A DNA stretch of 64,000 nt from a virus (Duplodnaviria > Heunggongvirae > Uroviricota > Caudoviricetes). The notes beneath the pieces are model-generated. The model was given only the letters and a program-made list of their open reading frames with translations, was not told the DNA's origin and did not search any database. The DNA lies in the IMG/VR virus record IMGVR_UViG_3300029862_000001, positions 53,276-117,275 of that record. The stretch is one strand, 5' to 3'. Each line of letters begins with the position of its first letter. The first letter of the stretch is position 1. The position numbers and the translations under genes were made by a program. Below are positions 5,816 through 64,000 of this stretch, piece by piece.

Positions 5816-5963
5816 TTTTGCACGGAAGAGGCAGGTAATATGACCATACCAATCGGAGAAGGAGAGTATGTCGAGATCGTACTTGACAACGGAGAGAAAC
5901 AATAGAACATATATCAGAATCGGTTATTAAAAAAATATATAGATGACCAAAAGAGGCATTGAT

Positions 5964-5990
5964 CCCCTGCTTAAAAGCAGGGGCTTTGCT
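5964..5990 (+). terminator. Perfect 8-bp hairpin cccctgct-taaa-agcagggg followed by cttTgct
   Basis: Seen in sequence, in a ~390-bp stretch of low coding density (5816-6098). Confidence 0.35.
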
Positions 5991-6098
5991 AAAGATCGTA
6001 AAGTGCGAAGAACCCAGGTTCAGGGGAGACGCGGCCTGTTCTGCGTGGCGTAAGGCTACAGTAGATGAAATTATTGAACATTTTAAAAACAGATAATT

Positions 6099-6512
6099 AT
6101 GGGATATATATGTACAAGATGTGGTGGAACAAATGTTGCCTGTGAAGCCATAGTAAATCCGAATACCGGAAAAATAATAGATTATTTTGATGGATCTTTC
6201 GCGCATGCTATTTGCTCGGATTGTGAAAACGAGGTAATAATATCCAACATTGAAGAAGTCAAACATGAAATTGATTTAAGATTTCATGAATTTGTAGAAA
6301 GAACAGGGAAGGAGCCTGAATACGTAGAATGTCAGATTGTGTGGAAAGAGACAGGAGACGATAAAAGAACGACAATCAAACTATCGCTGAGTATCAACGA
6401 TGATGATAATGATGATGTTTTTTATTATTGTAATGGAATAGAATCGTTTAAGCAACTTGCTGAATACGGGATGGTAAAATTTATCGTAACAGGTTGTTGG
6501 AATTTCTTTTAA
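6099..6512 (+). CDS. hypothetical zinc-ribbon protein (CxxC...CxxC)
   Basis: ATG start; CTRCGG...CSDCEN motifs. Confidence 0.55.
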   Translation: MGYICTRCGGTNVACEAIVNPNTGKIIDYFDGSFAHAICSDCENEVIISNIEEVKHEIDLRFHEFVERTGKEPEYVECQIVWKETGDDKRTTIKLSLSINDDDNDDVFYYCNGIESFKQLAEYGMVKFIVTGCWNFF

Positions 6513-6549
6513 GAAACATATGTAGTTATCATTTTTAATAACATATCTT

Positions 6550-6876
6550 ATGAAAACACAAGAAGAATATGCCCATGAAATTGACGAAATCGTTCGCCGG
6601 GATGTAGAGAGCTGCCAGAGTGACTGGTTTATAATCGACAAGGAGATATTTATGCAGCCAGAGAATAAGAACAAGGCATTTATTTTGGGAACAAGAAAGA
6701 CCGGGTGCGATATGATCGTACTTGGAGGTACTAATTGCAGTGGATCCAATATAGATCGGCTTTTCGGTTGCCTTGGCAATGAAAATTTCTATGTATGTCA
6801 GCCGTTATCTTTCTATAAATCACAACAAGAAATCCAGAAAGTAAATCCGCTTTATGCTTTCCCCGTTAATCAATGA
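6550..6876 (+). CDS. hypothetical protein (108 aa)
   Basis: ATG start. Confidence 0.5.
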   Translation: MKTQEEYAHEIDEIVRRDVESCQSDWFIIDKEIFMQPENKNKAFILGTRKTGCDMIVLGGTNCSGSNIDRLFGCLGNENFYVCQPLSFYKSQQEIQKVNPLYAFPVNQ

Positions 6877-45694: not shown

Positions 45695-46276
45695 TTATGA
45701 AACTTCTATTTCATAATGCGAAGCCTCTGTCTCAACTATCAATCTTCCCTCTCCTTCAAACTCAACACTATCATTTCCTGGACCAGTAACAAAAGGGAAA
45801 TCAGATACGGATGTTACATAATCTCCAGAACCACCGGAAAAAGACTGACTTTTATTTTGTTTGTAATTGATAGTCAATTGTGTTTTACCTATCTGAAGAG
45901 TTCCAGATAAATTTTTAGTATAAGTAGTGGTAGTTGTAATATCCCCATTTTTATAACAATACATTATAAAGATGGTAACCGGACTCTTTTTTATATTACT
46001 ATCCGGACCTGCATGATAAGATTCATTTCCTCCAAATATGCTATAAATGTGACAATAAGGACCGACTCTTTTACTTGAAGTTTTAGCCTTATCCTCGACT
46101 CCTTTCAAAGATATAGTAACCTTACTCTTGTATTCAATATCCTTCCAATTACAGACTCCTTCACTTACGTTTCCAACAAACCTGTCATCAACATAAACCT
46201 CTATATTCCCCTGCTGATTGGTCTTCAACTGATACTGAACAAGACTTGAAACATCTTCGTATCTCCTTCTCATACT
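45695..46276 (-). CDS. beta-rich structural protein (~193 aa), possible fibre/adhesin-like
   Basis: ATG at 46276 with RBS aaggag 8 nt upstream (the track TTG start is 46282); Thr/Gly/Ser-rich, beta-strand-like composition. Confidence 0.5.
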   Translation of the reverse strand, partial: SMRRRYEDVSSLVQYQLKTNQQGNIEVYVDDRFVGNVSEGVCNWKDIEYKSKVTISLKGVEDKAKTSSKRVGPYCHIYSIFGGNESYHAGPDSNIKKSPVTIFIMYCYKNGDITTTTTYTKNLSGTLQIGKTQLTINYKQNKSQSFSGGSGDYVTSVSDFPFVTGPGNDSVEFEGEGRLIVETEASHYEIEVS

Positions 46277-49200: not shown

Positions 49201-52200
49201 ACGAGCCGATTCTTTATCTATAGACCATCTCGCATGATAAGGAAGTTCAATTATAGTAGCCGTTTCTCCACCTATGTTAAGAGAATACCTTTTAGTGCCA
49301 TTAGCGTTCGTTTCAGAGCTTATTTGAATAGGAACCAATGATTTTATGGAAGATATAAATTTATCGGCTCTAAGACCCGCAATTTCATACCTTTCATTGC
49401 CATCATTAGAGATTCTTCTAACCATCAACGTCTCTGGATTCTGGGCGCTATCTATATTGGCTCCCGGCGTATTATCAGATTCGTCTAATTCATTTACAAG
49501 AGAATCTATATTAGCATCATCCTCCCCGAAATTACTTAACGTAGATTCAGAGATACGACCTTTATCAATCCTGTTTTGCTCGATATAAGGAAGGAGGTCC
49601 GTGATATTTCCAACCTGGCCAAGATCTTCTATGGTAAATACCGAATCTGCAAGTTTATCTTCGTCAACTTTCTCTCCTTTGTCCCGCCTGTTCATTATAT
49701 CAACATACGAAGAAATAGCATCATCAAGCTCCTTTCTTTGATCTGGCTCCAAATTAGACTTAGCCATATCAATAATAGCTTTATTTTCCTCATATACTGA
49801 TCTCGGACTTGTAAGCCTGTCAGCCTTTTCAGATAATGATTTAATGAGATTAACAGGACTATCACCTAAAGACGATACATAATCATCAAAATCTTGTTTG
49901 TATTTATCATACACATCTTTTTCTCTCGCAGTAAGAAGATCGGCATTACCTGTATATAGTTTATCAATTATAGACTGCCTTACTACCGGAACCATAATAG
50001 GATTATCCATAGCAGCCTCATAATCTTCATCCGATACAGACTCCGTAAGCGGTGACTCTTTTATATCATCTTCTGCCTCCTTCATCCTATCTTCCCTTAC
50101 TCTATCAAGAGCATGCATAAAAGCCTTGATAGTCCAAGCTTCGTCTTCCGAAATCTTACCTTCTGACACAGCTTGATCTACTACCTCATCAGTGTCATAT
50201 TCACCAACTTTATTAGGCTCTGCAAGATCAGGAACCTTGTCATCCTTCTTATAAGGAGTAGACCATAGAGAAGACAGCGCTTTTGAAAACTCCCTGTTTT
50301 CCTCAGCTAAGAATCTTTTATCAAGCATCTTAGATAAGAAGTTATTCATATTCCTATAATCCATCAAACTCCTGCGGTATTCATTTACCAAGGATCTCAT
50401 GGCTTTATCTTTGGCCGTAAACTTCTTTTCCTGTCTTGATTTTACATTGAAATAATCATCAAAAGCTACAAGCGTATCATAGGCCTCTATTACATTTTGT
50501 GAACTCATAGGAAAAAGAGGTGATGATAAAACAGATTCGGTTCTACTTACCAACTCTTCTATCGAAAACTCTTTTCCTGTTAACGTTGATAACTCAGACA
50601 ACGAATTATTGTAATTGGTTCTAAGATCTTCCAATTCTTTGGTTTTTCGTTGTATAGATTCAGCTTGTGGATCTTTTCCATCTACGTTACGAGGACGAGT
50701 AGCAAGATCTTCTATTTCGGATTCAAGTTCTTCTATCCTTGACCGTATGCCACGGGTAGCCATCGCCCGCTCCCTTGCCCTGTCCGACAGCCGGGAGAAC
50801 GTACTTAGTGCATATGCCACGCGAGGCTGACCCGAAAGCGTTTCTATGACAGAAGCTATGTCTTTCATTCTTGATTCCGATTGAAGACCAAGAAAAGCAT
50901 TACGAGCCACGTATTTTCTAAACTCAATCTTAGAATCATCACCTATAAGATCTTCGGCAAAACTCTGGGCAGATCTGAAATCCGAAAGACGATTATTATA
51001 ATTATCAATAATAGAATCCTTGTATTTCTTTGCCTCTTCCAAAGACATTCCGTTGGCTTCGGCTATTTCCGAAATAGGCATCATATCAACCATCTGCCTG
51101 AAATTTTCAGCCGAATCCTCTAAGGTTCCCATTTGGTTGTCAATAGACATCTTTTCAAACATTGCATCATCAAGCTCCTTGCCGGTCATAGACTGAGCAT
51201 CGGAACGAACTTGAGGCCCTAAACTCATTGACTTTTTCAACGTATTCAAAGCCGCCGTATTAAGATTAGAAGATGCTTTGTTATATTCATTTACTTGCCT
51301 TTCTAGCAATATCTGATTATTACTATACTCTTTCACTCCAGAGAAGCCTTCCCTCATACCAAACAAAGAACCGATAATAGCACCGATTCCTATTTCAGTC
51401 CATCCTTCTTTAGACGTATATTGTTTTTTAAATCCTTCAGAAATAGCATCAAGAACATCAACGGCCCCGTTCATAGCAACATTGTCATATCTTGACTTAA
51501 CATATTCCTCAGCCGTATTCTGGACAGCACCTTGAGACCCTTCTTCCCACAGACCCTCAGATACCGGTCTTTTCATGATATTGAAAACATTGCCTGCTAT
51601 CTTCTGTCCTATATTGGGATTGGTTATTTTAATAGCCATCTCTCCCGGCTTCGCAACTTCCGTCCCTAATCCAAATAAATGCTTGTTGAGCTTCTTTTCC
51701 AACCCAGGTATAGCCTTGCCTCCTAACCCTATATACTTACCAAAAAGAAGCCAGTTGGATAATCCTACGATACCCATATTGGCGGCAAATATAGCACTAC
51801 CTACATCAGCATTAGAATTACGAAAAACAGCCATTTCCTCTACATTGGGATCACGACCATAAATCTTACGATAATAATCCTTGAAATCAGACTCGGATTG
51901 CTTCATAAAAGAATTTGCTTCGACCGATGACTCGAATCCAGCACTGGTAGCCAACAACGTCATGGTCTTAGCCGCCTCCCCTACATTTCTTCCGGTAGCA
52001 ACTCCTTTTCTCACATAGTTGTTAAACATGCTTTTAAGGCTTCCTATGCCCCTATTAGCAGCTTGCTCTGCTGCTAACTTAGCTCCGATTCTTCCACCTA
52101 ATTTGGCACCTATATTACCCAATGATCCAACTCCAAGTCCTCCGGTCATGTACGCTGATATCATGGCTCCTACGGTAAAAGACATACCGTTACCAAGGAC

Positions 52201-52914
52201 ATCATTCCATAAGAAATTACCGGTATCCTTAAAAAGCTTCTGACCGAAATTATAATCTTCTACCTCTTTCTTGTAATAATGAGGAAGAAGCATGTCTATT
52301 TGCTGGTCAAGATCACTTACAAACTTATCCATGTTAGTATTTAACGCAGCTTTGAAACTTCCCTCAGATGCCATATTGATAAGTTTGTCAGGCAATAACA
52401 CAACTCCATGCACACCGTACAATGCGGACTTTAAAGCGAATTTACCTACACCATTCCAAAACTTACTCCATCCGCTCTGTCTTCTGGCATAATAATCCTC
52501 ATTATTTATACCCGGAATATAGTTGGGATATTTTGTACGCCATACCCCATCATTACCCATCTGATGACTTTCACGGATACTTACCTTCGGTCCATAAGGA
52601 TTAAGAGGCGGCGGGGCAGGTGTAGCCCCCCTGTAGCTGTTACGAGCCAGTGCCTCCGAGTAGCTGTTGCTTATCTCCTTGGCTATATACGGTTCTTCGT
52701 ATTCGGCAGCAGCTATCCTTGATGCGTAATCCGGAAATTTAGGTTGGGCATACACACCTTCACCAGGCATATAATTAGGAACCAGAGGCGTTGTCGTCTC
52801 TGGTAATGTAGCCGGAGTGTAATTTTCTTCTTCGGCTAATTTCCTTTGCCTTGCCACATCTTCGTAAGTGGTTTTAGCAGCAGGATTATATCTATCTATA
52901 TTATTATCAGCCAT
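46276..52914 (-). CDS. giant virion-associated protein (2212 aa), function unknown
   Basis: 6.6-kb ORF with ATG start; Gly/Ala-rich N-terminal segment and long helical regions; partly tape-measure-like composition. Confidence 0.8.
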   Translation of the reverse strand: MADNNIDRYNPAAKTTYEDVARQRKLAEEENYTPATLPETTTPLVPNYMPGEGVYAQPKFPDYASRIAAAEYEEPYIAKEISNSYSEALARNSYRGATPAPPPLNPYGPKVSIRESHQMGNDGVWRTKYPNYIPGINNEDYYARRQSGWSKFWNGVGKFALKSALYGVHGVVLLPDKLINMASEGSFKAALNTNMDKFVSDLDQQIDMLLPHYYKKEVEDYNFGQKLFKDTGNFLWNDVLGNGMSFTVGAMISAYMTGGLGVGSLGNIGAKLGGRIGAKLAAEQAANRGIGSLKSMFNNYVRKGVATGRNVGEAAKTMTLLATSAGFESSVEANSFMKQSESDFKDYYRKIYGRDPNVEEMAVFRNSNADVGSAIFAANMGIVGLSNWLLFGKYIGLGGKAIPGLEKKLNKHLFGLGTEVAKPGEMAIKITNPNIGQKIAGNVFNIMKRPVSEGLWEEGSQGAVQNTAEEYVKSRYDNVAMNGAVDVLDAISEGFKKQYTSKEGWTEIGIGAIIGSLFGMREGFSGVKEYSNNQILLERQVNEYNKASSNLNTAALNTLKKSMSLGPQVRSDAQSMTGKELDDAMFEKMSIDNQMGTLEDSAENFRQMVDMMPISEIAEANGMSLEEAKKYKDSIIDNYNNRLSDFRSAQSFAEDLIGDDSKIEFRKYVARNAFLGLQSESRMKDIASVIETLSGQPRVAYALSTFSRLSDRARERAMATRGIRSRIEELESEIEDLATRPRNVDGKDPQAESIQRKTKELEDLRTNYNNSLSELSTLTGKEFSIEELVSRTESVLSSPLFPMSSQNVIEAYDTLVAFDDYFNVKSRQEKKFTAKDKAMRSLVNEYRRSLMDYRNMNNFLSKMLDKRFLAEENREFSKALSSLWSTPYKKDDKVPDLAEPNKVGEYDTDEVVDQAVSEGKISEDEAWTIKAFMHALDRVREDRMKEAEDDIKESPLTESVSDEDYEAAMDNPIMVPVVRQSIIDKLYTGNADLLTAREKDVYDKYKQDFDDYVSSLGDSPVNLIKSLSEKADRLTSPRSVYEENKAIIDMAKSNLEPDQRKELDDAISSYVDIMNRRDKGEKVDEDKLADSVFTIEDLGQVGNITDLLPYIEQNRIDKGRISESTLSNFGEDDANIDSLVNELDESDNTPGANIDSAQNPETLMVRRISNDGNERYEIAGLRADKFISSIKSLVPIQISSETNANGTKRYSLNIGGETATIIELPYHARWSIDKESARVLNRYTDVSIQDVGNSYSLVYKRLDSDELVPYRTGVGFGENEVDKIDQEALSSLKKGDKVNLEIDVNDTYNQSLFAEYNDAVQSGDKKRIESAENKLVSNMVIKVMSGNRFVSVVKADTGGIDGISKIRRTAFNKWKKDAGRSATISVGTHVVAQTLPGRPVFNMKVNGQGYGQVENLPITEKGAEKVSDVGYVLNGKVVLKNGSKYTGFPFAYSILNDKGNNYKNVRVPVVVIKGKNGLNYLFPVSLRSVESEEGQKWMSFIDMLLESGDSELLQMGQDDIQDLNAYLTKLGLDPASYQVSYLNPISGLRKAREAIEKLSTVPDVVKWVEDGSRSVKDIVTSEVESGIDFEGEMFVAPKIRIQFGKSSSSPKSLIEDDLPFSDEGKTVTSKEYVDVYEEEMPEEEQQPAAGKTAPVQQPTATSGSSVSSTGTTRTTRKSFAARLEDIESYIKENNLPPFANIYDFIARKIVGGDIRFLRQRGNPKDLKSEMGLDPKGTVGDRISYSKGLTMDEYVDYLKKSKEQVVVDYLNSRNGNNEQIISELKNFLKYINFVPSKALNYSLRVNGMDTLKEYGTKEEVEKMESDINSLVSKVLPTVDNKTVEDVSTAIKSNNLPAIWEPVESLDMTNEEKIEFLNNVADFLSGIPEYDAVVESIESESDNILNDGKEGSAEGGAVRTEEDGDKKGDGEGKGQSRTNVEVKGNVELPGYEEGRVDNYRKNGDKFSDIAEVTLWLLRRAAGITSIPEGEEVYVEGDEVNSIMTDMESRYGIDTINHSHTTKAIRDLNGVSGYKVEYGLTFLTYDPFIRISNPREEYKAAKDEPRISEEPLTHISRVTTPYFLYGGDEAYTSVPAKVEPIPEKIMGRNGIKFGMSVVELTKLGYKKAGGNWIYKFYMNSGVYDLYNISTGEAFRAKPDLGVKISSSAFIRSLSQSGRKIQNMISNMSQEEIDRNKNLVEGSDNSDSINELNKEC

Positions 52915-55846
52915 AAATTTTTTGCAAAAAATCGTTCAACTTACTAAACTTGTCATTCATGTTGGGCATGATATTTATTCCTCTCATATACGGATCTCTC
53001 ATCTGATCAAGACGCTCTTGAATAGCCTCCTTCACGTATTTTACAAAGAAGTACTGAGGACACTTCTGGTGAATGCTATTCCAGTAATCCGCATACTCAT
53101 CATTACCAGGATCCAAAGGAACAAAATCCGAGAACAACAATGCAGGATTTTTAGAATTTTTAGTCCTTTTGTCATAGAAATTGACCGCTACCTCTCTCGA
53201 ACCCCTGTCATCCATTCCTTCCAACTGAACTGATATGTTATCAGACATGTCAATAAAATTATCAACAAAGGTTTTAACAACATTCATTTCTTCTGGCTTA
53301 AGGTAAGAACCATGAACCATTACTATATCATAAAGATCATTCTTAACATCAGCCTTAGAAGCCAAACGGGGAAGACCATTACGTATGAGATACTTATCAT
53401 AAGAATAGCCTTCCTTCTTTCCGGTATCTACAAAATCACAGGTTCCAAAACTTGATTTGTAACCATCTACTGGATAATTGCGCTCCTCAACCGAAGGATC
53501 TATACCCGCCTTAAGAAGTTCATCATTCGTGATCTCTACCCTTTTTGTAACATAAGAGTTTTCACCGGACCCTACTTGAGCAGTCAAGAATCTTCTGACA
53601 GTGCCATTATCTATCTCGGCGTCCATATTGATAGTATTAATAGCAGTAGGATCCAGATTATTTACCTTTCCTGCCATGTAACCAGACAATCTTCTAAACT
53701 GAGCCTTCTGCAAAGACTTTTCTGGTGAATCGGCATTCCAATTGTATCTTTTGTAAGAATCAAAGTAATGATACTGAGATAACTTATCAGAAATCTGATC
53801 GGGAGATACAGACATTTTTATCTCATCCTGCATCTGACCCGCTATCATGTCAGACACCCTACTATTTTTCTCAACATATCTTAACTGAGTAATAGTCAAA
53901 GGCTCCCCTTCCTGATAATCTTTTAAATCTATATCACCATCCTTATCTATGGTCATATAATCGGATATATTAAAATCAGGATCGCCATTGAGTTTCTTCA
54001 TTCCATTAATAAGAGCCAACGTGCCAGTAGAAGAACCATTATCCTCGCTTGTAACGGTATCAAATACGCCAGTTGTTATGGCCGTGGCGAGTAGGAAAGC
54101 TCCAGCCTTATCATCCGTATCGGTAAGATTTATAAAAGAATTTCCTTTCATAAACTTAGCATTACGAACTTTCCTGATAATATCCTTATTTTTTTCAGTA
54201 ACTATGTTATCGATTTGATAATCAGTTATGTTATTTATAGCCTTTGTGGCTCCGTTTGCCTTAGAATCAGAAAGAAGTAAAGCATCATAAGCTTCAGATA
54301 ATCTGTTATTTCCTTGTCCGAAATATCCGTTTTTCTGACCTCCATTGTTTTTTAAATAAGAATATATCCGCTCTTCAGGAGTCATATTAGCATACAATCC
54401 TGGATCAGTTTTTTCTTCTTCGTATGATGCTGCAACGATATTGTTTCTATCTGTAGGAGATAATGAATTATACAATTTCAATAAATTGGCTTTACGATCT
54501 GTAGAATGAGATTTAAGTAACTCATAAGGAATATCAGCCAAGTTAATAGATCCTGTCTTACCCGTTCCAGAGTTAATAGCCGTAGGCCCGTCCATAGGAG
54601 CCATCGGTACTCCCATACCGTCTGCGTCTGTCGTGCCTGCGGATGAGCTTTCAGTTCCCATCTTGGAGCCGTAAGTGCGCATGTACTCGGTTTCAATCTT
54701 AGCCTGAGCAAGTTGCTCTTTTGCCAACGATATTTCAACCATAGACTTAGCATTGTCAGTCAAAAACTTTTGCTGAGCCCTATCCTCTGCCAACCTTGCA
54801 AAATAAAGATCGTCTTTCTTCCTTTCAAAACTTGTATTGTCGTATCTCCATACATCAGTCATCTTATCGAAAAGATTATTAGTAACAACAAAATTAGCAG
54901 CCGCTACCGGATCAGACGAAGCTATTATCATATCTGCCTTCCTCTTGGCTTCTGCTTTCTGATTTTTAGCTTCCTGTATCTGGCTGTCAATACGATCAAT
55001 AATATCTTTATTATCCCCCACTGATTTCTTTTTTGCTTCCAATGCTCCTATGTGCCTATCGTATCTTTCGACATAAGACCCAATGTATTGACTAACCAAA
55101 TCCGGATTACTGAACACCGGATTGGTGGCTGCCATGTACGATGCTTCTATTCTCATCTGATTCCTCATGTTTTCAGATAAGTTAGCAGACACAAAATTCC
55201 TTATCTGGGAATCTGTAAGTTCATCTACATTAACTTCTATAATACCACCAGTAGGATTACCTTTAACATCATATTCTGTTGTCTGAATCTTCTTGCCTTC
55301 GTTATTTTTCCTAAAGTCACTAACCAGCTTATTTATCTCCTTAGTATAATCGACATAAGGAGAATAATGAAGACCTCCTAACCTTGATCCTGCTTTACCA
55401 TCTGACCTCCATTTGTAATAAGGATCCAAAGCATGCCATTCATTAATAGGAGAATAAAGTTCAGGATGATTCTGTTTTATAGATTCTATTTCCTTCATAA
55501 CCCTCTTGCCTTCTTTTGTGCCGGCAATCGCGTTAATGACCGTATCGTCCAGCACCGAGCTAATCTCTCCTTGTATGGCTCTCGTAACTCCATCAGAAGA
55601 AAGATCCACGCCTTTAAATTTTTGATTGATGTTAGCAATCACACCTGACATCTTATCCTCCATATAAGCTCGGGCTTCAGGCTTATCTATCTCTTGACCC
55701 ATAAGATAATCTACCTGGGTATAGATCTTTTCACGAGCAGCATCAACCTTCTGCTGTTTGTACATCATGACGTCCTTAACAAGATCTATGTTGTAAGGAC
55801 TAACATACGGGGCATATTGCCTTAAAATACTATACTGTGAAGCCAC
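52907..55846 (-). CDS. large structural protein (979 aa)
   Basis: GTG start at 55846 with strong SD aaggaggaccaaataGTG; overlaps the next gene by 8 nt. Confidence 0.7.
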   Translation of the reverse strand: MASQYSILRQYAPYVSPYNIDLVKDVMMYKQQKVDAAREKIYTQVDYLMGQEIDKPEARAYMEDKMSGVIANINQKFKGVDLSSDGVTRAIQGEISSVLDDTVINAIAGTKEGKRVMKEIESIKQNHPELYSPINEWHALDPYYKWRSDGKAGSRLGGLHYSPYVDYTKEINKLVSDFRKNNEGKKIQTTEYDVKGNPTGGIIEVNVDELTDSQIRNFVSANLSENMRNQMRIEASYMAATNPVFSNPDLVSQYIGSYVERYDRHIGALEAKKKSVGDNKDIIDRIDSQIQEAKNQKAEAKRKADMIIASSDPVAAANFVVTNNLFDKMTDVWRYDNTSFERKKDDLYFARLAEDRAQQKFLTDNAKSMVEISLAKEQLAQAKIETEYMRTYGSKMGTESSSAGTTDADGMGVPMAPMDGPTAINSGTGKTGSINLADIPYELLKSHSTDRKANLLKLYNSLSPTDRNNIVAASYEEEKTDPGLYANMTPEERIYSYLKNNGGQKNGYFGQGNNRLSEAYDALLLSDSKANGATKAINNITDYQIDNIVTEKNKDIIRKVRNAKFMKGNSFINLTDTDDKAGAFLLATAITTGVFDTVTSEDNGSSTGTLALINGMKKLNGDPDFNISDYMTIDKDGDIDLKDYQEGEPLTITQLRYVEKNSRVSDMIAGQMQDEIKMSVSPDQISDKLSQYHYFDSYKRYNWNADSPEKSLQKAQFRRLSGYMAGKVNNLDPTAINTINMDAEIDNGTVRRFLTAQVGSGENSYVTKRVEITNDELLKAGIDPSVEERNYPVDGYKSSFGTCDFVDTGKKEGYSYDKYLIRNGLPRLASKADVKNDLYDIVMVHGSYLKPEEMNVVKTFVDNFIDMSDNISVQLEGMDDRGSREVAVNFYDKRTKNSKNPALLFSDFVPLDPGNDEYADYWNSIHQKCPQYFFVKYVKEAIQERLDQMRDPYMRGINIMPNMNDKFSKLNDFLQKIYG

Positions 55847-58662
55847 TATTTGGTCCTCCTTCTTCTTTTAATTTCATCATCTTCTTCATTTAAACTTTTC
55901 AAGTAAGGTGTAGAATAATCACCCATATTCATCACATCCTGATTACCTTGAACGTAAATAATTTGACCACTTGGAAGCATTCTCATATTCGGAGCTATGG
56001 AAGCTATGGTATTCAACGATGTACGAACATTGAACTTATTCTGTATCTCGCTGTTTATGCTATCATAATAACGAGCAAGATTTTCATCCCTTATAGCCAT
56101 AGCTTTCAACAACCCAGATTCATAACGTTGCCTTTCTGCTATGTTCTTATCATCTGTCTGAACATAAGCCATTTCATTGAACCTGTCAGCTTCGTTTATT
56201 TGCCTTGCGTTATTGAAATTTACTTCATTAACGTACTTGGCTATATTGCTTCCAGCTATGGCGTTCATATTAGCCAGAATAGCAGCCCGCTGGGAGTCGG
56301 GCACGTCACCTACTGCGTCTAACTGAGCCGATGTCGCACGGTTGAGCTCGTTGATATACTGATCAGCAGATTGAAGAACCGGGTCTATTCTCGGAGCCTG
56401 ATGTCTTTCCAGGCCTTCTATCTCCAAGCCAGTGTCAAGGGTTCTCAGCATTTCCGGGAAGATAGGACCGAACGCTGCCGGCCGCCCCTGTCTTTTAGTT
56501 CCGTTGTCTTCAACCACCTCCTCTGTATCGGTGTCGGTTACAGTCGTGGGTGTATCGGTTTTCGATTTTACTTCTATCCTTCCAGGAGATCCAATATTAG
56601 GTGGTGTAAGACCTGGTGCTATGGGACCGGCCTCAATAGGCTTCATTTCTGGTTTAACAGACTCAAGAACGAAGTCTATTTCCGGCATTAACCCACTATC
56701 TCTTAAAGCAACAAACTTATTATAATCGGAGCCCAGAATCTTCTTAGCGGCATCAGATTTATCACCAAATAAGTCAACATAATTCTTTATCCCTTTTTCG
56801 TTTAACAATCTTTTTTGCTCTGCCGAAACAACGTCCAACCCATAATAAGAACGAGTAGCTGTTGTCTGACCAAACTTATCATCTACGGCAAATGAATTAT
56901 AAGCCTGATTCCCTCCGTAGCTTCCGGCGTCCTGGCCCCAGAATCCGTACTCATCTCTGAATTTCTTGGCTGCATCAGCATTCGTGATAGCGCCTACATC
57001 AGCTAACGCCCACAATGCATTTAATTGCCTGTTATATCCTTTCTGAAAACCTTCTGTATCAAAATCACCATCCGTATTGTACTTGTTAGCCCATCGGTTT
57101 ACATCAAGCAAATTAGATACCGCCTTATCATTTACCCTTCCGTATCCTAAATTGCTTCTATGTTGTAGATTCTGATTGGCATTGACACTGGAATCGGGAT
57201 TAAGAATCTGCTCACGACCACTAACATCAGACATAGTCATATTAAGAGTTCGTCCAAATAACTGATTGATAAGCTTATTGTAGCCGATAGCATTCTTTCT
57301 AAGTTCCTCCAGCTCCTTCTGAGTAGGTCCACCTTCAGCCATTTTCCTGGTTTGCTTAACATACTCGTCATATATCCAGTTCTTGGCATCTGATTCTGCA
57401 ATATTAAAAGCCTTGGCTTGTTTCTTTACCTGATTCAGATCAACAACCCCGCCATCCCTGAAGAAAGCATCCATCTTCTCGTTACGCTTAGATTCTTCCT
57501 GTTTGCCATAAACGATTTCAGCGAAAGAACGAAATTGTGCTTCAAGCTCGTCTATCTCTTTCTGGTTTTCATTGACGTACTTGGAAAGAATAGAAGCATT
57601 AAGATTAGATGTATTTTTATCTTTTACATCTTCATTTTTCTCTAATCTCTTATATACACGCTCCTGATCTTCGTACTTATCAGACAAACCAATCTTCTTC
57701 TTATATCGATCAAGAAGTGCAGCATACGTATCTTTAGACGTTGCCTTAATACCGTAGTTTTCTCTAACGTAAGAGGCGAACTCATCATCTATCTTACGAT
57801 AATCGGAAACAATATAAGCTTCCGGTAAATCAACTGGCGTGCCTCCATTCTCATGCCTGTTTCCTTTAGCTTCCATAGGCCCCACTGAATCAGGCGTCAG
57901 CACATACTCGCCTTTCTCTATCTCTACGTTAGCATTATCCTCCATAGATTTAGGAAGAGGATAAATATATTCGCCGGTCATATCAGACGTATCCATCTTC
58001 TGACCGTTACCTAAATTCACGCCACCACCTTCACGTTCCCACTTGATGAATTGCTGACGACGCTCCTTGGCAAGTTTTTCCCTTGCAGCCTGCTCGTCTC
58101 TGCTGGCAGCATATGCAGCAGATGAAGCTCCCATGATATTACGGGTAAGACCTAATCCTAAACTAACACCAGATAAGGTAGCTTGAGCCACGTTAGCGCC
58201 CACCTTATTACCAGCTCGTATCCTGCCAAGGCTGGATCCGAACATCTGAGCTCCGCTGGTTAGGTCGGGTGAGTAATATGGGATAGTCATAGGATCGAGA
58301 GGATTTCCATCCTGTGATCGCTTTTCTTTTGATTGATTTTCTTCTTTATCAACACTAACAATAGTTCCTTTGGGCATAGACTTAGGATCGAACGTATTGT
58401 TATTACTTACATTCATAGTCGAAATAGAAGGTTCTTGCCTTTTTATAGTAGAATAGTCAGGACCTATAATATTGTCAAATCCCGCCTCCATCATGTCTAT
58501 TTCCGAATTTATCTCACTCATACCAGGAACATTGGACATATCCATATCAATATAAGGATTAGATGTCGTATCAGCCTGTTGTGTAACATCCTGAACACTA
58601 CCACCAGGAGCGAATACCGGACGATTTTTTATGATTCGTAATCTCATATCATCTTTTTTCAC
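55846..58662 (-). CDS. large structural protein (938 aa)
   Basis: ATG start; uninterrupted 2.8-kb ORF. Confidence 0.7.
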   Translation of the reverse strand: MKKDDMRLRIIKNRPVFAPGGSVQDVTQQADTTSNPYIDMDMSNVPGMSEINSEIDMMEAGFDNIIGPDYSTIKRQEPSISTMNVSNNNTFDPKSMPKGTIVSVDKEENQSKEKRSQDGNPLDPMTIPYYSPDLTSGAQMFGSSLGRIRAGNKVGANVAQATLSGVSLGLGLTRNIMGASSAAYAASRDEQAAREKLAKERRQQFIKWEREGGGVNLGNGQKMDTSDMTGEYIYPLPKSMEDNANVEIEKGEYVLTPDSVGPMEAKGNRHENGGTPVDLPEAYIVSDYRKIDDEFASYVRENYGIKATSKDTYAALLDRYKKKIGLSDKYEDQERVYKRLEKNEDVKDKNTSNLNASILSKYVNENQKEIDELEAQFRSFAEIVYGKQEESKRNEKMDAFFRDGGVVDLNQVKKQAKAFNIAESDAKNWIYDEYVKQTRKMAEGGPTQKELEELRKNAIGYNKLINQLFGRTLNMTMSDVSGREQILNPDSSVNANQNLQHRSNLGYGRVNDKAVSNLLDVNRWANKYNTDGDFDTEGFQKGYNRQLNALWALADVGAITNADAAKKFRDEYGFWGQDAGSYGGNQAYNSFAVDDKFGQTTATRSYYGLDVVSAEQKRLLNEKGIKNYVDLFGDKSDAAKKILGSDYNKFVALRDSGLMPEIDFVLESVKPEMKPIEAGPIAPGLTPPNIGSPGRIEVKSKTDTPTTVTDTDTEEVVEDNGTKRQGRPAAFGPIFPEMLRTLDTGLEIEGLERHQAPRIDPVLQSADQYINELNRATSAQLDAVGDVPDSQRAAILANMNAIAGSNIAKYVNEVNFNNARQINEADRFNEMAYVQTDDKNIAERQRYESGLLKAMAIRDENLARYYDSINSEIQNKFNVRTSLNTIASIAPNMRMLPSGQIIYVQGNQDVMNMGDYSTPYLKSLNEEDDEIKRRRRTK

Positions 58663-58715
58663 AAAGATAAGAGAAACGAACGAAAAAATCCAACGTTATG
58701 CAACAGGTTTAAAAA

Positions 58716-59780
58716 TCAGGGACGTATGACAGGCAAACCGCCCGAATCAGGATCGTACTTAAGACCGCATGCCATGCGATAGTTTTTAAGCACTCTCTTG
58801 TACAAAAATAGCACCGTCTTGGAATCTATTTTTTTCATAGACTTAGTTAAAACCTCTTCTGTTGAAACAGACATCAGACAGCTATTCAAGAACGACCTGA
58901 CATTGGAACCGAACAAGGTCTTCACCATTTTTCTAAACGTTCTAAAAAGATATGATGCAGAAAGAGACTTTAACCCATTGCGAGCCAGTCTCTTATTAAG
59001 ATAATTAATGGCTTTTTCAGATAGACAAAGCCTGTTCTTTCCTTGACTGTCCACCTCTGACGAGAACCACGAATACAAGGTGGTAGGATGTTTCTTGAGA
59101 TGATTGATAAAGGAAGTTATAATACCTTCTTTTAAAGCCCTTTTATGAGCTACACATGCGGCGATTTTTTCTTCTCTTTTCAAAGAGCTGTCAAGGCACC
59201 TAAACACCGTCCTATCGTCTCCAATAAAATACTGAGGACGTTCTTCTTTAAACTTAGCCCGATAAGCGGCATATCCTTCCTTACGGAGCATATCTATCTG
59301 AGACCGGATATAGAACCTTACACACTTTTCTTCGGCTTCTTGCACGCTTTTAAGATAAGGAACTGACTTTCTTCCATATCGAAGATAGTCATAAACCATA
59401 GCCTCTATGAAGTCATTGTATGGGAAGAATCTTCCAAAACCAAAGTTCCAAACTATGAAACATCGCACTCTATCTTTCCAATAATCAGATATGAGAAAAT
59501 TGCTACAATATCTCAACTTCCTGTCTTTCTGATAAAAATGATGAGTATGTTTGTCATAAAATAGATTAAAATATCTCAAATTGCCTAAACACTGACCGGC
59601 TGGACGGCGTACTACATTATACCCTAAGTTGCTGAAGCTATTGTATATAACTTCTATCGGAGAGACCTGCTCTTTCTTAAAGAGCTTGTCGTGTAACTTG
59701 TGAGGATCTGTTATTTCTTTTAACTTTGTGTCCATATTTTTTTGTTTTTTTTTTAGTGCAAAGATATGGTTTTTCATCAT
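58716..59780 (-). CDS. hypothetical 354-aa protein with possible HUH-like motifs (KHTHHF; YAAYRAKF)
   Basis: The track start at 59837 is TTG; ATG pair at 59780 (MMKNH...). Motif assignment is speculative. Confidence 0.5.
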   Translation of the reverse strand: MMKNHIFALKKKQKNMDTKLKEITDPHKLHDKLFKKEQVSPIEVIYNSFSNLGYNVVRRPAGQCLGNLRYFNLFYDKHTHHFYQKDRKLRYCSNFLISDYWKDRVRCFIVWNFGFGRFFPYNDFIEAMVYDYLRYGRKSVPYLKSVQEAEEKCVRFYIRSQIDMLRKEGYAAYRAKFKEERPQYFIGDDRTVFRCLDSSLKREEKIAACVAHKRALKEGIITSFINHLKKHPTTLYSWFSSEVDSQGKNRLCLSEKAINYLNKRLARNGLKSLSASYLFRTFRKMVKTLFGSNVRSFLNSCLMSVSTEEVLTKSMKKIDSKTVLFLYKRVLKNYRMACGLKYDPDSGGLPVIRP

Positions 59781-60065
59781 ACGCTCAAAGAAGAAAATGC
59801 ACGGCCTTGTATCCGGTTTGAGAGAAATAGGATACAAGGTTTTTTTGTTTTATGACAGTTTGGAAAAGAGACGAAATAACGGATCTAAACGTAACCGCCT
59901 GACCGTCAGTGGTGGGACAACAAATCTTGAATTAAAACTACACCTATGAATAGTCTTCGTTTTCCTTAATATTAAGACCATTTTCAATGATCTTATCCAT
60001 TATATTATTTATATTATTTTATATACTTTATCATTTATTCATATAATTGTTTACAGTGAATGAAC

Positions 60066-60235
60066 TTGACGACCGAAGGGAGTTAAGTGAGTGAACGGAT
60101 TGACAAATTACTTTTTCCGTCATTGTATTGTTAGCCTAATTGTGTTAAAAGATTGAGTATCGTGACCGAAGGGAACGATGCGAAAGAACATATAATATTT
60201 AAAAACGACTGAACCTATCGACTGAAGGGAGATAG
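60066..60235. repeat. Three dispersed copies of GAC(C/T)GAAGGGA(G/A) within a 660-bp non-coding region
   Basis: Copies at 60069-60080, 60162-60174 and 60218-60230; the first and third also share downstream tta/ata-(a/g)gtga(g/t)...gtga. Confidence 0.5.
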
Positions 60236-60390
60236 GTGATGGAGTGACGTTAATAATTATATTAGGTAGCCAGTGGAGAATTAGGCAGGTTTGTAGGCGA
60301 GACGGGCGTCCATGCCCGTCAGGACAGTGGAAGTACGTAGGTCTGTTCTGTTAAACCAAGACGATGATAGTTCCATCCTTCACGAAATCG

Positions 60391-60464
60391 CACAAAAAAG
60401 CCGGATTATCTTGATATCGTTCTTCAACCTTCGGTATCCGTGTAACGAGTCTCAAATCCGGCTT
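60391..60464 (-). terminator. Large two-level hairpin (outer 10-bp stem aagccggatt/aatccggctt, inner 7-bp stem gatatcg/cggtatc) followed on - by TTTTTTGTG
   Basis: Lies 36 nt downstream of the - gene ending at 60500. Confidence 0.5.
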
Positions 60465-60499
60465 CGATTTATTAATATGAGAAATAAAATAATATTGTT

Positions 60500-62920
60500 C
60501 TAATTATCAGTGACGCCTTTAATGCGAAGCTGTATATTGGGAAGCACGGCATTAATCAAAGCCATTTTCTTATCCTCTTCGCTTTCTTTTTCATGCTGTC
60601 TATACATCATGCTGTAATCACTGTCATCACCATCCTTTTTCCCGTCTAACGTCAGTAAATGATTTATGATGTCCTTACCATACGTTTCAGCCCATGTACG
60701 GAATCTCTCTTCCTCGGACTGTCTCTCCTGGGACGGAGCTTCCGGGTTAGGAAGGGCGGCTGCCATTTCTACCTCTGGAAGTGTTACCGATGCTGCTATT
60801 TCCCCATCATCTCCGAATCCCATTTGACCATACGAAGATACGGAATTTTCTTCAATATCCAAACCAAGATTTTTAGCAACCTCCATAGCATAGTTATAAC
60901 GGTCATCGTTTCGTATCACGCTTTTATGAGGACGTCCTGCTCCTTGGTTCCAAGCTACTACAGCATCTTTAAGGTTATCGGCGTTCATGAAGTCCTGCCG
61001 GCTGTAGTTGTAATACCCTGGTCCTTCTTTTCCTTTTCTTGTGTATAAGAAATTAGAATATCCGGTTTTCCCTTCATATTCGTCAGCCAAGAACTCAAGT
61101 TGGTCTTTGAATGTGGGTGTAGAATGACCTTTCTTTTTGGCATGCTTGAATAGCTTATCCATGCGCTCATTATGCCATTGCTGTATGCCGTATGATGTTC
61201 TGTTGTCTCCGTATATGTCATCTTTAAGACCGGATTCAGCCATGAGATTACCTATGATAGCAAGCGCCTGTATCTTAGACATGCCTCTTTTATTAGTAAA
61301 ATATTCATATGCTTCACGCTGTTTACCAACCACGCCACCTTCTTTCTTGATATTGGTATTGTATCTCTTTCCATTCCACGTAAATTCCTTAAGACCTCTT
61401 TTCCTGGCTTCTTTAAAGGCTTCGCCTCTTGTAGTGGAAATCGGGTCTTGTAATTCAAGATCGTTTTTTATACCAAGAATGGCATTAATAATATTATCAT
61501 CCTTTTTATCATCATCATCTAATTTATCAACATTATTCGAAACGTAAGATTGGCTTATTAAATTTGATACGCTTTTTCTATTTTTATAAGTTCCTTCTTT
61601 ATCTGATGGAGCTTCAAAAGCATACACAAGTGGATACGAATAATCCGTATCTGGATCTTCTGACATAAATTCGCTTACTGCATGAATGGCTTTATTGTAT
61701 TTAGTATCCTTTATACTATACATCCCAGCATCTTGAACATGATCATAAAATCTGTCTATCATGTAATTGATATATCCACGCTTATCCCCCTTAAATCGCT
61801 CTTTATCTTTCTCAAACTCTTTGGGTGGATATCTTTTATCGGATTCTTGGAAAAGTCCCTTAAACCCTCCATAATCAGATACGGCATAGGGATTACCACC
61901 AGATTCTTCAATAATATTTCCAAGTACGGTTTCTATCTGGCGTTGATTGAAACCTTTATCATATAAAGCATCATAGATCATATTCATTCCATCTACGTCC
62001 ATAGTGCGGTGCGTACCCTTACCCACGCGCTTCATATTTTCATATTTGGATTTGAATAAATCCCAATCTATTTCCGGCTTAGAAGAATCCCCTCCTTGTT
62101 TTTTAGATCTTATCTTCATTTTTTTATCCAGATCATTCTTGGAATCAATGGCGGATTTCAACAAAACCTTGTTTGGATCATTCTCTTCATATGGATTCTT
62201 ATCTTCTACATAATCCAGAATATCAAACGGGTATCCTATTGTATCAAGAATCTTAGTAACAATCCCTACACCAAGAGGTTGATCGCTTCTATAAAAATCA
62301 TACTTATCTTTTACGACCATCCTACCTCTATCATCACGGTACATAGTGAAACTTGATAAGCCTGATAAATCATTTAAATCGCCGTAAGCGTCTGGTATAA
62401 AATTGTATTCGTTAAATACCTGATGTTCTCCAGTTCTGGCTTTTTTTAAGAGATCTATTCCCTCTTCCACCATTCCAAGTTTCCTACTTGTTACATCCCT
62501 TAACTCCTCCAAATCAGATACGTCCTTGCCTGCAACTTTTCCATCAATTATCTTATTATCTAAGGAATCAAGCTCCCTTTCATATTTTTTAGTCATTTTC
62601 TCCCACCCACCATTTATCCTGTCAGATATAATGGATTTGATATTGTCTGGTATTCTGACAATCCCATTTTCTTCTTTCAGATTATTTGGTTGGTTTAAGA
62701 ATCTAAACCAAAGATTCTGACTAAAATCATCTACATTGGCTTTCGGAACATCTTGACCAAAAAATTCCATTATTTTGGTTTTTAATCCTCTTTCATTAGC
62801 ATACACGTCAGGTGTTATATTAGATGCCAGATATTCTCTAAGTTTTACAAACGGACCAATTTTACTCCATAATGTTTTTGGTTGTTTGTCTCTTACATAA
62901 TTTTTAGTCTTCTTTGCCAT
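60500..62920 (-). CDS. virion-associated peptidoglycan hydrolase with two lytic transglycosylase (SLT-like) domains
   Basis: ATG at 62920 with RBS aagaaggaggaagaaaaaaATG. Motif 1 is ESGGNPYAVSDYGGFKGLFQ (ES...AxSxxGxxGLxQ); motif 2 is ESGLKDDIYGDNRTSYGIQQW. Confidence 0.6.
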   Translation of the reverse strand: MAKKTKNYVRDKQPKTLWSKIGPFVKLREYLASNITPDVYANERGLKTKIMEFFGQDVPKANVDDFSQNLWFRFLNQPNNLKEENGIVRIPDNIKSIISDRINGGWEKMTKKYERELDSLDNKIIDGKVAGKDVSDLEELRDVTSRKLGMVEEGIDLLKKARTGEHQVFNEYNFIPDAYGDLNDLSGLSSFTMYRDDRGRMVVKDKYDFYRSDQPLGVGIVTKILDTIGYPFDILDYVEDKNPYEENDPNKVLLKSAIDSKNDLDKKMKIRSKKQGGDSSKPEIDWDLFKSKYENMKRVGKGTHRTMDVDGMNMIYDALYDKGFNQRQIETVLGNIIEESGGNPYAVSDYGGFKGLFQESDKRYPPKEFEKDKERFKGDKRGYINYMIDRFYDHVQDAGMYSIKDTKYNKAIHAVSEFMSEDPDTDYSYPLVYAFEAPSDKEGTYKNRKSVSNLISQSYVSNNVDKLDDDDKKDDNIINAILGIKNDLELQDPISTTRGEAFKEARKRGLKEFTWNGKRYNTNIKKEGGVVGKQREAYEYFTNKRGMSKIQALAIIGNLMAESGLKDDIYGDNRTSYGIQQWHNERMDKLFKHAKKKGHSTPTFKDQLEFLADEYEGKTGYSNFLYTRKGKEGPGYYNYSRQDFMNADNLKDAVVAWNQGAGRPHKSVIRNDDRYNYAMEVAKNLGLDIEENSVSSYGQMGFGDDGEIAASVTLPEVEMAAALPNPEAPSQERQSEEERFRTWAETYGKDIINHLLTLDGKKDGDDSDYSMMYRQHEKESEEDKKMALINAVLPNIQLRIKGVTDN

Positions 62921-63098
62921 TTTTTTCTTCCTCCTTCTTAAATTTGTGGTAAGCATCACAAACCTTGTCAACCAACCATCCCATTAGATAGGCAGCGTGC
63001 TCATCTTCTCCGGCGTCAAAACTGTAGTTAATATTAAGATACTTACAATAAAGGGAAAGACCGTGCAGACATTCGTGTCCTATGGTTCTAACATCCAT
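62904..63098 (-). CDS. short ORF / possible C-terminal remnant of a gene abutting the IS right end
   Basis: The frame stays open from 63221 across the IS boundary (63176) to 62904; the part inside the IS is an artefact, and the first ATG in flank DNA is 63098. Confidence 0.25.
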   Translation of the reverse strand: MDVRTIGHECLHGLSLYCKYLNINYSFDAGEDEHAAYLMGWLVDKVCDAYHKFKKEEEKNGKED

Positions 63099-63175
63099 AT
63101 CAGATAGTGAATGAAATAAGAAACATATTTCTTTCCTGTGATTGGTTCGGTTTCCTACGAAAATAGTCCTGCCAC

Positions 63176-64000
63176 CTTGACATACTCCCATAGCTAAAGC
63201 AAATGGGATTCTTGGATACAAACGTATGGAACCCCGGTATTTCTATCGCTGGAATTACCCATACTCTCCAATTCGGAAATGCCCTTCCGAAGTATATTAC
63301 GGGCTGCAAGAACATCACGGTCGTTAATTGCGCCGCACGCCGGGCACACCCACGTGCGGTCGCGTAACGACAATCCTTTATTAATGCAGCCACATTCGCA
63401 AGTTTTGGAAGAAGGATACCATTTGTCAATCTTGTGTACTATCACTCCATACTTTGAAGCAACATACATTAGCTTATCAATAAAAGAAGAATGGCTAAGA
63501 TCAGAAACCTTCTTTCCCCACAAACGCTTCATTCCTTCAATGTTTAAATCTTCAATAAAAATATAATCATATTGTTTGCATAACTGGTGTGCTAATCCCC
63601 ATTGAAAATCCGATCGAAGATCTTTTATTTTACGATATGCTTGTTGGAGTTCAAACAGTCTCCTTCTTCTATTGTTGGATCCTTTCTTTGCATTAGAAAA
63701 CCGTTTGTTTAGTTTTCTAATCTTGTTTTGATATCGTTTGAAGAATAGTGGAGAATCGATTTTGCTACCATCGCTTTTAGTTAGATAAGTTTTCAGCCCA
63801 AAATCCAATCCGATAGATGCACCATCATGTGTCTTTCTATAAGAGTTTGAAGGATTATGGTCTGTAACTATAATCAAACTAAAACGTGAACAGGTTTCTC
63901 TAACTATTCTAATTTGTTTAACATTACCTTCATAAGGTCTACTGTATGAGAATCTAAATCGTTTCTTTCCTTTGTTAATTGTTAGAAAATTACCATTCAG
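63176..64000 (-). mobile_element. IS200/IS605-family element right end with tnpB (runs past the window edge)
   Basis: tnpB coding sequence plus ~18 bp beyond its stop; the terminus ...GTATGTCAAG (- strand) matches the TCAA-type right-end cleavage motif of this family; the boundary is defined by comparison with the orphan copy at 2045. Confidence 0.65.
63194..64000 (-). CDS. tnpB: TnpB (IS605 OrfB) RNA-guided nuclease, C-terminal ~270 aa (N-terminus outside the window)
   Basis: RuvC-I GASIGLDFGLKTY, RuvC-II YIFIEDLNIEGM, zinc finger CECG...CPACG, RuvC-III NDRDVLAARNI; the frame is open from 63877 up to position 64000 with no stop. Confidence 0.75.
   Translation of the reverse strand: MNGNFLTINKGKKRFRFSYSRPYEGNVKQIRIVRETCSRFSLIIVTDHNPSNSYRKTHDGASIGLDFGLKTYLTKSDGSKIDSPLFFKRYQNKIRKLNKRFSNAKKGSNNRRRRLFELQQAYRKIKDLRSDFQWGLAHQLCKQYDYIFIEDLNIEGMKRLWGKKVSDLSHSSFIDKLMYVASKYGVIVHKIDKWYPSSKTCECGCINKGLSLRDRTWVCPACGAINDRDVLAARNILRKGISELESMGNSSDRNTGVPYVCIQESHLL

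Follow-up and report, generated by a model that had tools for sequence, protein, structure and literature searches.

The 64,000-nt stretch analyzed here, referred to as the window, comprises positions 53,276 to 117,275 of the IMG/VR virus record IMGVR_UViG_3300029862_000001, a member of the Caudoviricetes. Between a gene for a virion protein and a tail lysozyme gene, the window contains an orphan gene, here termed X, and a long structured non-coding region next to its start codon. X and this region form one cassette of about 1.7 kb that has been gained and lost and that occupies one or two sites per genome. The non-coding region carries three hairpins, A, B and C, on the plus strand, two promoter boxes that face each other at the start of X, an intrinsic terminator (T), and several other conserved elements (Table 1). 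All window genes between 32.4 and 63 kb lie on the minus strand. The human-gut phage csAssE-Sib (OR575929, 151 kb) is 92.5% identical to the 2-kb stretch around the locus, and no other GenBank phage matches that stretch. The cassette is carried by large podophage-like genomes of gut Bacteroidota phages. Individual loci are designated below by L numbers.

Table 1. Features of the cassette, its flanks and a related region; positions refer to the window unless another sequence is named.
Feature	Position	Strand	Description
Virion protein gene	55846–58662	-	938-aa structural protein; one flank of the cassette
Gene X	58716–59735	-	339-aa basic orphan protein, isoelectric point 9.7; very small phage-only family
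Opposite-strand -7 box TAACTTTG	59721–59728	+	overlaps X codons 2-4; predicted antisense-RNA promoter
P hairpin	59756–59802	+	arms GUGCA 59756–59760 and UGCAC 59798–59802; encloses the X promoter box
X promoter -7 box TATCTTTG (TAnnTTTG)	59759–59766	-	about 25 nt upstream of the X ATG
T, intrinsic terminator	59805–59846	+	10-bp stem, conserved 15-nt loop GGUUUGAGAGAAAUA, U7
Conserved block CTGAnnnTCAG-(T/G)GGTGG(G)AC...ATCTTGAAT	59899–59933		common to three sequence groups
AT-rich block	59945–60058		about 25% GC; directly 5' of hairpin A; present in all groups, sequence differs
Hairpin A	60064–60088	+	stem ACUUGAC/GUUAAGU, tandem G.A, CC-GAA-GG tip
Hairpin B	60159–60179	+	stem AUCGU/ACGAU, tandem G.A, CC-GAA-GG tip
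Hairpin C	60214–60236	+	stem CCUAUC/GAUAGG, tandem G.A, CU-GAA-GG tip
E1, G-rich block	60265–60327	+	GTAGCCA-N11-GGCAGG-N4-5-TAGGCGAG, variable hairpin 60301–60320, then CAGGACAG; conserved across groups
E0, nested hairpin then U6	60394–60462	-	terminator of the upstream tail lysozyme gene; outer cassette edge
Tail lysozyme gene	60500–62971	-	Pfam Phage_lysozyme2; other flank of the cassette
Ro60/tRNA region of relatives	L001 12831–14800 (= csAssE-Sib 72756–74725); L005 1–1452		

Gene X and its non-coding region as one cassette

The preliminary description of this stretch, made from the sequence letters, placed a 354-aa protein with no obvious family at the position of X. The open reading frame is present, running from 58716 on the minus strand with 373 aa counted from a TTG and 354 aa from an upstream ATG, but the start used by homologues and in the csAssE-Sib annotation is the ATG at 59735, which gives 339 aa. 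Residues N-terminal to this ATG show no conservation as protein among homologues. The lack of a family was borne out. X has no match in Pfam, PHROG, NCBIfam or PADLOC, nor in PDB sequence or fold searches, and the family, profile and fold searches yielded no confident homology to a structural or assembly protein. Its own family is very small: a word-indexed search gave 17 clusters, and exhaustive profile searching across 1.84 billion proteins gave 22 representatives. AlphaFold modeling from a 13-sequence alignment predicts a mainly helical protein with one beta-hairpin, at a predicted local distance difference test (pLDDT) score of 76, and the same alignment contains no invariant acidic or histidine residue. 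The gene is intact in most loci. Basic, mostly intact and free of conserved catalytic residues, X is read as a functional and probably non-enzymatic nucleic-acid binder of unassigned fold class. In the Logan-assembled locus L005, the X gene (about 5659–6747) has three in-frame stops relative to its closest homologue and is either a pseudogene or the product of an assembly error.

X and the non-coding region occur together. A 21-base gapped pattern describing E1 matched at least 118 phage stretches, and X lies about 500 nt from E1 on the opposite strand in all 72 phage loci with enough flanking sequence. The pattern also matched eight bacterial contigs, three of them too short to test and five without X; these five are taken as chance matches. 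Loci with X about 60% identical share the upstream architecture, among them L002, in which the gene context is different. More distant X genes are preceded by 0.55–1.1 kb of non-coding DNA (L148, X 41% identical; L150, 22%; L280, 19%), with the same terminator arrangement and related mini-hairpin motifs. The conserved blocks of the non-coding region are kept in loci with X 60% identical and partly kept in loci at 41% and 19–22%. Against csAssE-Sib, the non-coding region is 96% identical, above the 92.5% of the 2-kb stretch that includes coding sequence. No conserved open reading frame lies inside it.

At the window site, 79 of 80 loci carry the cassette. In the remaining locus, L386, 1,537 bp inside the cassette have been lost (L386 junction 2885/2880), corresponding to window 58774–60310. 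The three hairpins, the AT-rich block and the antisense unit are gone, together with half of E1 and the greater part of X. L386 is a natural knock-out allele in which the lysozyme terminator is kept. In Cellulophaga phage phi4:1, homologues of the two flanking genes abut, without X. Many contigs carry two paralogous cassettes about 35 kb apart on the same strand. The second site lies between a DUF6808 gene and a gene for a 292-aa structural protein; among 80 loci with a flanking gene at least 98% identical, it is filled in 25 and empty in 55, and it is empty in csAssE-Sib. The insert there consists of the non-coding region and X and nothing more.

The preliminary description had proposed a mobile or satellite-like insertion. 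Presence/absence polymorphism, with filled, empty and deleted alleles in related phages, and the two paralogous copies per genome agree with this proposal, whereas target-site duplications and terminal repeats are absent, and comparison of filled and empty alleles revealed no flanking direct repeats. A transposon-like insertion was rejected on these grounds, with neither terminal inverted repeats nor a target-site duplication found and with flanks that co-diverge over about 100–150 nt. In loci L285–L364, the second-site alleles were compared over about 150 nt to either side of the insertion point; filled and empty ones diverge at the end of the DUF6808 gene, over its final ~100 nt, and also in the promoter region of the next gene. 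Such flanks suggest co-conversion or a pair of old haplotypes more than a simple insertion.

Hairpins, promoter boxes and other conserved elements

With the start codon moved to 59735, the non-coding stretch covers 59736–60499. The preliminary description was right that a long structured non-coding region, which is also conserved, lies beside the gene, but its size is 764 bp rather than 660. The region contains exactly three copies of GACYGAAGGGA, as had been noted, all on the plus strand at 60071, 60164 and 60220 and within 160 nt of one another; elsewhere in the 64 kb there is one match, with one mismatch. The copies had been likened to iterons. Instead of double-stranded iterons, they are hairpin tips: each repeat forms the end of a hairpin with a covarying stem, a feature that the preliminary description lacks, as it does the T-run hairpin at 59805–59846.

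From the outside in, hairpins A, B and C share a layout of outer stem, tandem G.A, two pairs and a 3-nt loop, and in hairpin A the G.A-rich flanks extend the structure to about 60056–60096. Across an alignment of 20 distinct variants of the three hairpins, 97.2% of cells pair and seven of nine pairs change on both sides. The covariation score of 0.763, against 0.29 in shuffles, was reached by none of 500 shuffles and collapses once the partners are slid. Wobble pairs make up about 5% of cells. One-sided changes in the stems are nearly all G.U (G.T) on the plus strand, where the minus strand would have an A.C mismatch, as with ACUU(G/A)AC and GUU(A/G)AGU in hairpin A. The inner pair 4-8 of hairpin C occurs as C-G, U.G and U-A, all of which pair on the plus strand alone. 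In DNA folding, too, the plus-strand hairpins are more stable than their complements; hairpin B reaches -4.9 kcal/mol (z -3.1) on the plus strand and -3.3 on the minus strand. The hairpins are strand-specific and covarying, and they lie on the plus strand, antisense to X.

The tip cores are CCGAAGG, CCGTAGG, CCGGAGG, GCGAAGC and ACGTAGT, with C-GTGA-G (C-GUGA-G as RNA) in L148. Their loops, GAA, GTA or GGA, are closed by C-G, and the second pair is C-G, G-C or A-T. GCGNAGC and GCGNNAGC are extraordinarily stable DNA mini-hairpins in which a CC-GG stem is also accepted (PMC13037366). By sequence, the tips conform to the DNA mini-hairpin rule of a GNA or GNNA loop with a closing C-G pair and, next to it, a G-C or C-G pair. 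Along the plus strand, a conserved TTTAAAAG-GAnTGA precedes the hairpins and GAGnGAAC follows them, and the hairpins sit between the 25%-GC block and the G-rich block. Since X is on the minus strand, the hairpin-forming plus strand is the template strand of X. Such hairpins do not occur beyond chance elsewhere in the 64-kb window, and no host-type promoter box lies between T and hairpin A on either strand. A Type III toxin–antitoxin system (ToxIN-like) was considered and rejected; the repeats are on the strand opposite to the gene, are unevenly spaced (93 and 56 nt) and have differing stems, and PADLOC and Pfam searches are empty.

At the start of X, two promoter boxes face each other. TAnnTTTG is the Bacteroides -7 promoter consensus, and the X promoter box matches it exactly in all 122 distinct sequences. 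On the plus strand, a second TAnnTTTG immediately precedes the complement of the X start codon; 94 of the 122 sequences have it exactly, and the others have near-exact or slightly shifted boxes. This box is kept under differing N-terminal residues of X (DTK, ETK, AKI, SKS), and codons 2-4 (window 59721–59735) look constrained to hold it, as in dual coding. Around the X promoter box, the arms of the P hairpin covary between groups (GUGCA/UGCAC, UUUGGAGC/GCUCCAAA, UUGGGC/GCCCAA, AGCAAUU/AAUUGCU), a descriptive comparison without a formal count. In the P0008 group, a U.G pair in P is viable on the plus strand only.

T shows the same strand preference. Its 11 pairs are formed in 92.9% of cells, nine of them change on both sides, and the covariation score of 0.558, against 0.264 in shuffles, was reached by none of 500; wobble variants pair on the plus strand only. 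The T-run after the stem is present in all groups, including loci with X 19–41% identical, and the loop is conserved even in the most distant loci. The U-run after the stem on the plus strand in every group identifies T as an intrinsic terminator for plus-strand transcription. A simple terminator scanner did not report T, because the loop limit of the scanner is 8 nt. Together, these elements predict a plus-strand antisense RNA of about 110 nt that covers the X leader and start codon and ends at T. The X mRNA, made from the opposing promoter, would have a leader about 20 nt long, and the antisense RNA would be complementary to this leader and to the start codon. The loop of T (window 59815–59829) resembles purine-rich segments that follow the hairpins (60180–60189), GCGAAAGAAC and GAGAGAAC...AAAUA; this likeness could be a shared single-stranded binding motif or a coincidence.

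Several other elements named in the preliminary description are present as described. The AT-rich block has about 25% GC over 59900–60124 and contains no host-type TAnnTTTG box. The palindrome GACGGGC-GTCCAT-GCCCGTC lies at 60301–60320 within E1, and the nested hairpin, with outer arms at 60400–60406 and 60456–60462, corresponds to E0, which is still present in the deletion variant L386. GC skew at E1 is +0.31 to +0.38, with negative flanks. A two-tetrad G-quadruplex-type motif is found on the plus strand in all 133 distinct regions and on the minus strand in none. The block at 59899–59933, in which there is no covariation past 4 bp, is possibly a candidate protein-binding site. An Infernal scan against Rfam gave no match to group I or II introns, retron msr/msd, Y RNA, GOLLD, ROOL or other families: window 58000–64000 returned three chance-level matches (E 0.48–1.7, far under gathering scores), none of them in the non-coding region, and five related loci returned nothing at E up to 1. 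Complementarity of the region to the rest of the window is not above chance.

Possible roles of the hairpins

The reading we favor, tentatively, is that the hairpins are single-stranded DNA initiation signals beside an AT-rich block and that X is their cognate binding protein, in an origin-like form. We infer four things: the hairpins work at the DNA level, they are bound by X, synthesis begins at them, and the antisense RNA is made. In this model, X would be a basic and apparently non-enzymatic nucleic-acid binder made from its own host-type promoter. The antisense RNA of about 110 nt would start over X codons 2-4, form P, stop at T and throttle X in the manner of plasmid countertranscripts and IS10 RNA-OUT. 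The hairpins would extrude next to the easily melted AT-rich block and the G-rich block and be recognized by X, and the extruded hairpins would recruit a polymerase or primase, with synthesis proceeding towards X. The whole would be an origin-like module in which the binding protein resembles an initiator and is joined by a countertranscript, an unwinding block and hairpins of the single-strand initiation (ssi) type.

A reading at the DNA level accounts for the loop rule and the strand asymmetry, for the neighboring AT-rich and G-rich blocks, and for the missing plus-strand promoter and the non-enzymatic partner; its origin-like version covers the most parts of the cassette. A protein with an origin-like cis region, in a non-HUH form, is a live reading. 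As in known origins and ssi signals, an AT-rich unwinding block (about 25% GC, 5' of hairpin A) adjoins strand-specific hairpins. With no promoter between T and hairpin A, and with T stopping antisense transcripts, a separate plus-strand RNA over the hairpins has no obvious start.

The likeness to ssi signals, namely RSF1010 ssiA and ssiB and those of G4, extends beyond the strand-specific hairpins beside an AT-rich block. The G4 complementary-strand origin has three hairpins on one strand over a comparable span, and the hairpins here are three on one strand within about 175 nt. X (339 aa), a dedicated protein encoded next to the hairpins, is similar in size to the RepB' primase of RSF1010 (about 330 aa). 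The heptamer CCGAAGG is identical to that carried by RSF1010 ssiA, and the N4 P2 promoter carries the related GCGGAGC (PMC13037366). As differences, X lacks conserved acidic catalytic residues, and its fold matches neither RepB' nor other primases. The hairpins here all share one strand, no GC-skew signal marks an origin, and the cassette is dispensable at one site.

Several observations weigh against an origin-like role. In csAssE-Sib, there is no GC-skew inflection at the cassette: skew in 5-kb steps is 0.141–0.166 before it and 0.188–0.206 after it, and the single sign change coincides with the gene-strand switch at 110 kb. Skew follows gene strand only, which makes this a weak test. The cassette lies among late structural genes, far from replication genes, and it is dispensable at the second site. 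X is missing from Cellulophaga relatives and one contig has most of the cassette deleted, so the cassette is not an ancestral or sole origin. All three hairpins are on one strand, whereas RSF1010 ssiA and ssiB are on opposite strands, and N4 promoters are shorter and simpler than the hairpins here. The G.U-compatible covariation, the purine richness and the better folding of the plus strand as RNA fit a structured RNA equally well, and the only pointer to binding of the hairpins by X is their co-occurrence.

A structured RNA is unlikely, yet it is a serious contender. The plus strand would give rise to a non-coding RNA of about 350–450 nt, antisense to the flanking genes, whose G.A-clamped hairpins would serve as a multivalent platform for X or a host protein, in a ribonucleoprotein acting, for example, as a decoy or regulator. 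Compensatory and G.U-compatible changes on the plus strand agree with this, as does folding, with RNAalifold giving -49.4 for the plus and -19.9 for the minus strand and RNAfold -119 kcal/mol (z -2.35) and -93 (z -1.3), respectively. So do the G-rich and purine-rich composition, the conserved single-stranded purine motifs that flank each hairpin, the strict co-occurrence and joint divergence of X and the region, and terminator T, by which the plus strand is marked as transcribed nearby. There is also a precedent in the crAss-like phage phi14:2, in which abundant long non-coding RNAs of unknown function arise from long intergenic regions (bioRxiv 10.1101/2020.03.07.982082). However, the hairpins lack a host-type promoter after the strong terminator T directly upstream, no convincing plus-strand terminator follows E1, wobble pairs are rare in the hairpins, and neither Rfam, in the window or relatives, nor complementarity to the rest of the window lends support. 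The C-GNA-G triloop is a DNA stability motif that is not common in RNA, which leaves the loop rule unexplained. The phi14:2 regions resemble the present one as long intergenic regions of a Bacteroidota phage, but they show no sequence or hairpin similarity to it, have no X homologue and occupy a different genome position. More doubtful is a plain "moron", an additional gene that brings a promoter and terminators of its own and has only conventional regulatory sites upstream, with hairpins that would serve just termination or mRNA stability. An own promoter, flanking terminators, presence/absence polymorphism and a position between late genes fit a moron. Yet an invariant 11-nt core at three tips with covarying stems persists across X only 60% identical, a recognizable form of the core persists at 41% identity, the E1 block is found only next to X, and the non-coding part is better conserved than the coding part. 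Compared with morons and free-standing homing-endonuclease cassettes, the present cassette likewise sits between conserved genes with its own expression signals, presence/absence polymorphism and co-diverging flanks, but X has no nuclease motif or family, and a conserved structured region of 0.75 kb is always attached.

Structural promoters in the style of phage N4 are a quite unlikely alternative, a little less so than a moron: hairpins of the template strand, extruded from supercoiled DNA, would direct a phage RNA polymerase that reads single-stranded DNA to transcribe X early. Each of the three N4 early promoters has a GC-rich heptamer between inverted repeats whose sequence may vary as long as they pair; the loop must have a 5' G and a 3' A and be closed by C:G, and the template-strand hairpin alone is stable (PMC4496689). 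The hairpins here match in their three tandem copies, GC-rich heptamer tips, 3-nt GNA loops closed by C:G and flanking inverted repeats that vary freely if paired, and in that only the strand that templates the downstream gene, X, forms the stable structure. A conserved TTTAAAAG-GAnTGA also lies on the template 5' side of each hairpin, and the virion polymerase of phi14:2 transcribes single-stranded and not double-stranded DNA, no linear motif having been found upstream of its early transcripts. The differences from N4 are considerable. Stems here have 9–11 pairs plus tandem G.A mismatches, far longer than the 5–7 bp of N4, the central loop base is not conserved, and C instead of G stands at the equivalent of position -8. 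The hairpins lie 330–500 nt upstream of X, with the antisense terminator and the AT-rich block in this long spacer, and all 122 sequences already provide X with a host-type promoter. No further such hairpins beyond chance exist in the 64-kb window. No N4-type polymerase was found among the window proteins and no virion RNA polymerase was recognized among its giant proteins, most of the genome lying outside the window. Hardly credible is the preliminary suggestion that X is a rolling-circle Rep or transposase of the HUH class, accompanied by an iteron or hairpin origin. Its supports are a nearly invariant tyrosine, Y158, and hairpins on one strand. The proposed H-x-H motif, KHTHHF, lies in a variable stretch where homologues have GRFDRWY, SKTGHFF or VKTRHFF, and the HUH reading fails on this lack of conservation. 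In YAAYRAKF, read as Y-x2-Y-x2-K, only the second tyrosine (Y158) is kept, in the contexts YRAKF, YREEF, YRKAV, YTEEI and YKEEL, whereas the first tyrosine and the lysine are not conserved. No HUH, Rep, IS91 or other profile or fold matches X, and the cassette has neither terminal hairpins at both ends nor target-site features.

The predicted antisense unit invites comparison with cis-antisense RNA regulators. R1 CopA, ColE2 RNA I and IS10 RNA-OUT share a layout in which a short opposite-strand RNA with stem-loops and an intrinsic terminator covers a leader or start. The present locus has an opposite-strand promoter, stem-loops and a terminator placed as in the CopA and RNA-OUT type, and its predicted antisense RNA would come from a promoter facing that of X. 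It differs in that there is no sequence relation and the antisense RNA here is predicted only. A loop–loop contact with the short X mRNA is impossible, since transcription of X is predicted to start downstream of the conserved T loop.

No description of the cassette was found in the literature searched, and it has no match in Rfam, in protein families or among solved structures. Mini-hairpin initiation signals, antisense control and moron-like cassettes are each already known, and there is a real chance that the cassette is a new class. That it is an undescribed class of phage cassette in which a fold-orphan protein is paired with strand-specific DNA mini-hairpins that start synthesis, by priming or transcription, is possible but somewhat doubtful. 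Structure-specific initiation on extruded DNA hairpins is known from few models, namely N4 early promoters, G4-type origins and RSF1010 ssi. If the DNA reading is true, such initiation would be used in hundreds of human-gut phage genomes of a dominant gut phage group, the orphan X family would gain a testable function, and the cassette would travel between genomes as an accessory origin or promoter complete with an antisense brake. If the hairpins act as RNA, they and X would be a new pair of structured RNA and protein in these phages. Either way, the cassette is a clean portable unit that natural filled, empty and deleted alleles make experimentally tractable, and the predicted antisense promoter within X codons 2-4 would be a compact example of dual coding.

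Neighboring genes and related phages

Cellulophaga phages phi4:1 and phi17:2 encode distant homologues of the 938-aa virion protein. In Cellulophaga phage phi14:2, the gene-free region from which the abundant long non-coding RNAs are reported (L445 2904–4602) spans 1.7 kb at 29% GC and has no hairpins of the kind found here. Two giant proteins of 2137 and 2212 aa are encoded at window 32404–38817 and 46276–52914. Neither has a PDB sequence match or a DxDGD-type motif, and PHROGs gave nothing informative, one of the two being labelled merely as a virion structural protein.

Beyond the lysozyme gene, a TnpB/IS605 OrfB gene (Pfam OrfB_IS605, Cas12f1-like_TNB) occupies window 63177–64000 and runs past the window end, with a minus-strand open reading frame at 63194–63877 and beyond. 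Homology to csAssE-Sib ends at 63176, inside the gene for a 137-aa HExxH-like protein, so the TnpB element was apparently inserted there in this phage only.

Relatives encode a Ro60-related (TROVE) protein together with tRNA-Lys and tRNA-Tyr two genes past the lysozyme, whereas no tRNA genes were found in the window. The Y RNA model gave no match in L005, one of these relatives, and a phage Ro60 without a recognizable Y RNA may be worth a separate look. An annotated diversity-generating retroelement, with variable repeat (VR), template repeat (TR), initiation of mutagenic homing (IMH) site and reverse transcriptase, is located at L152 15752–17817 (csAssE-Sib 45751–47816). Its target is a tail-fiber gene about 4 kb downstream of the second cassette site.

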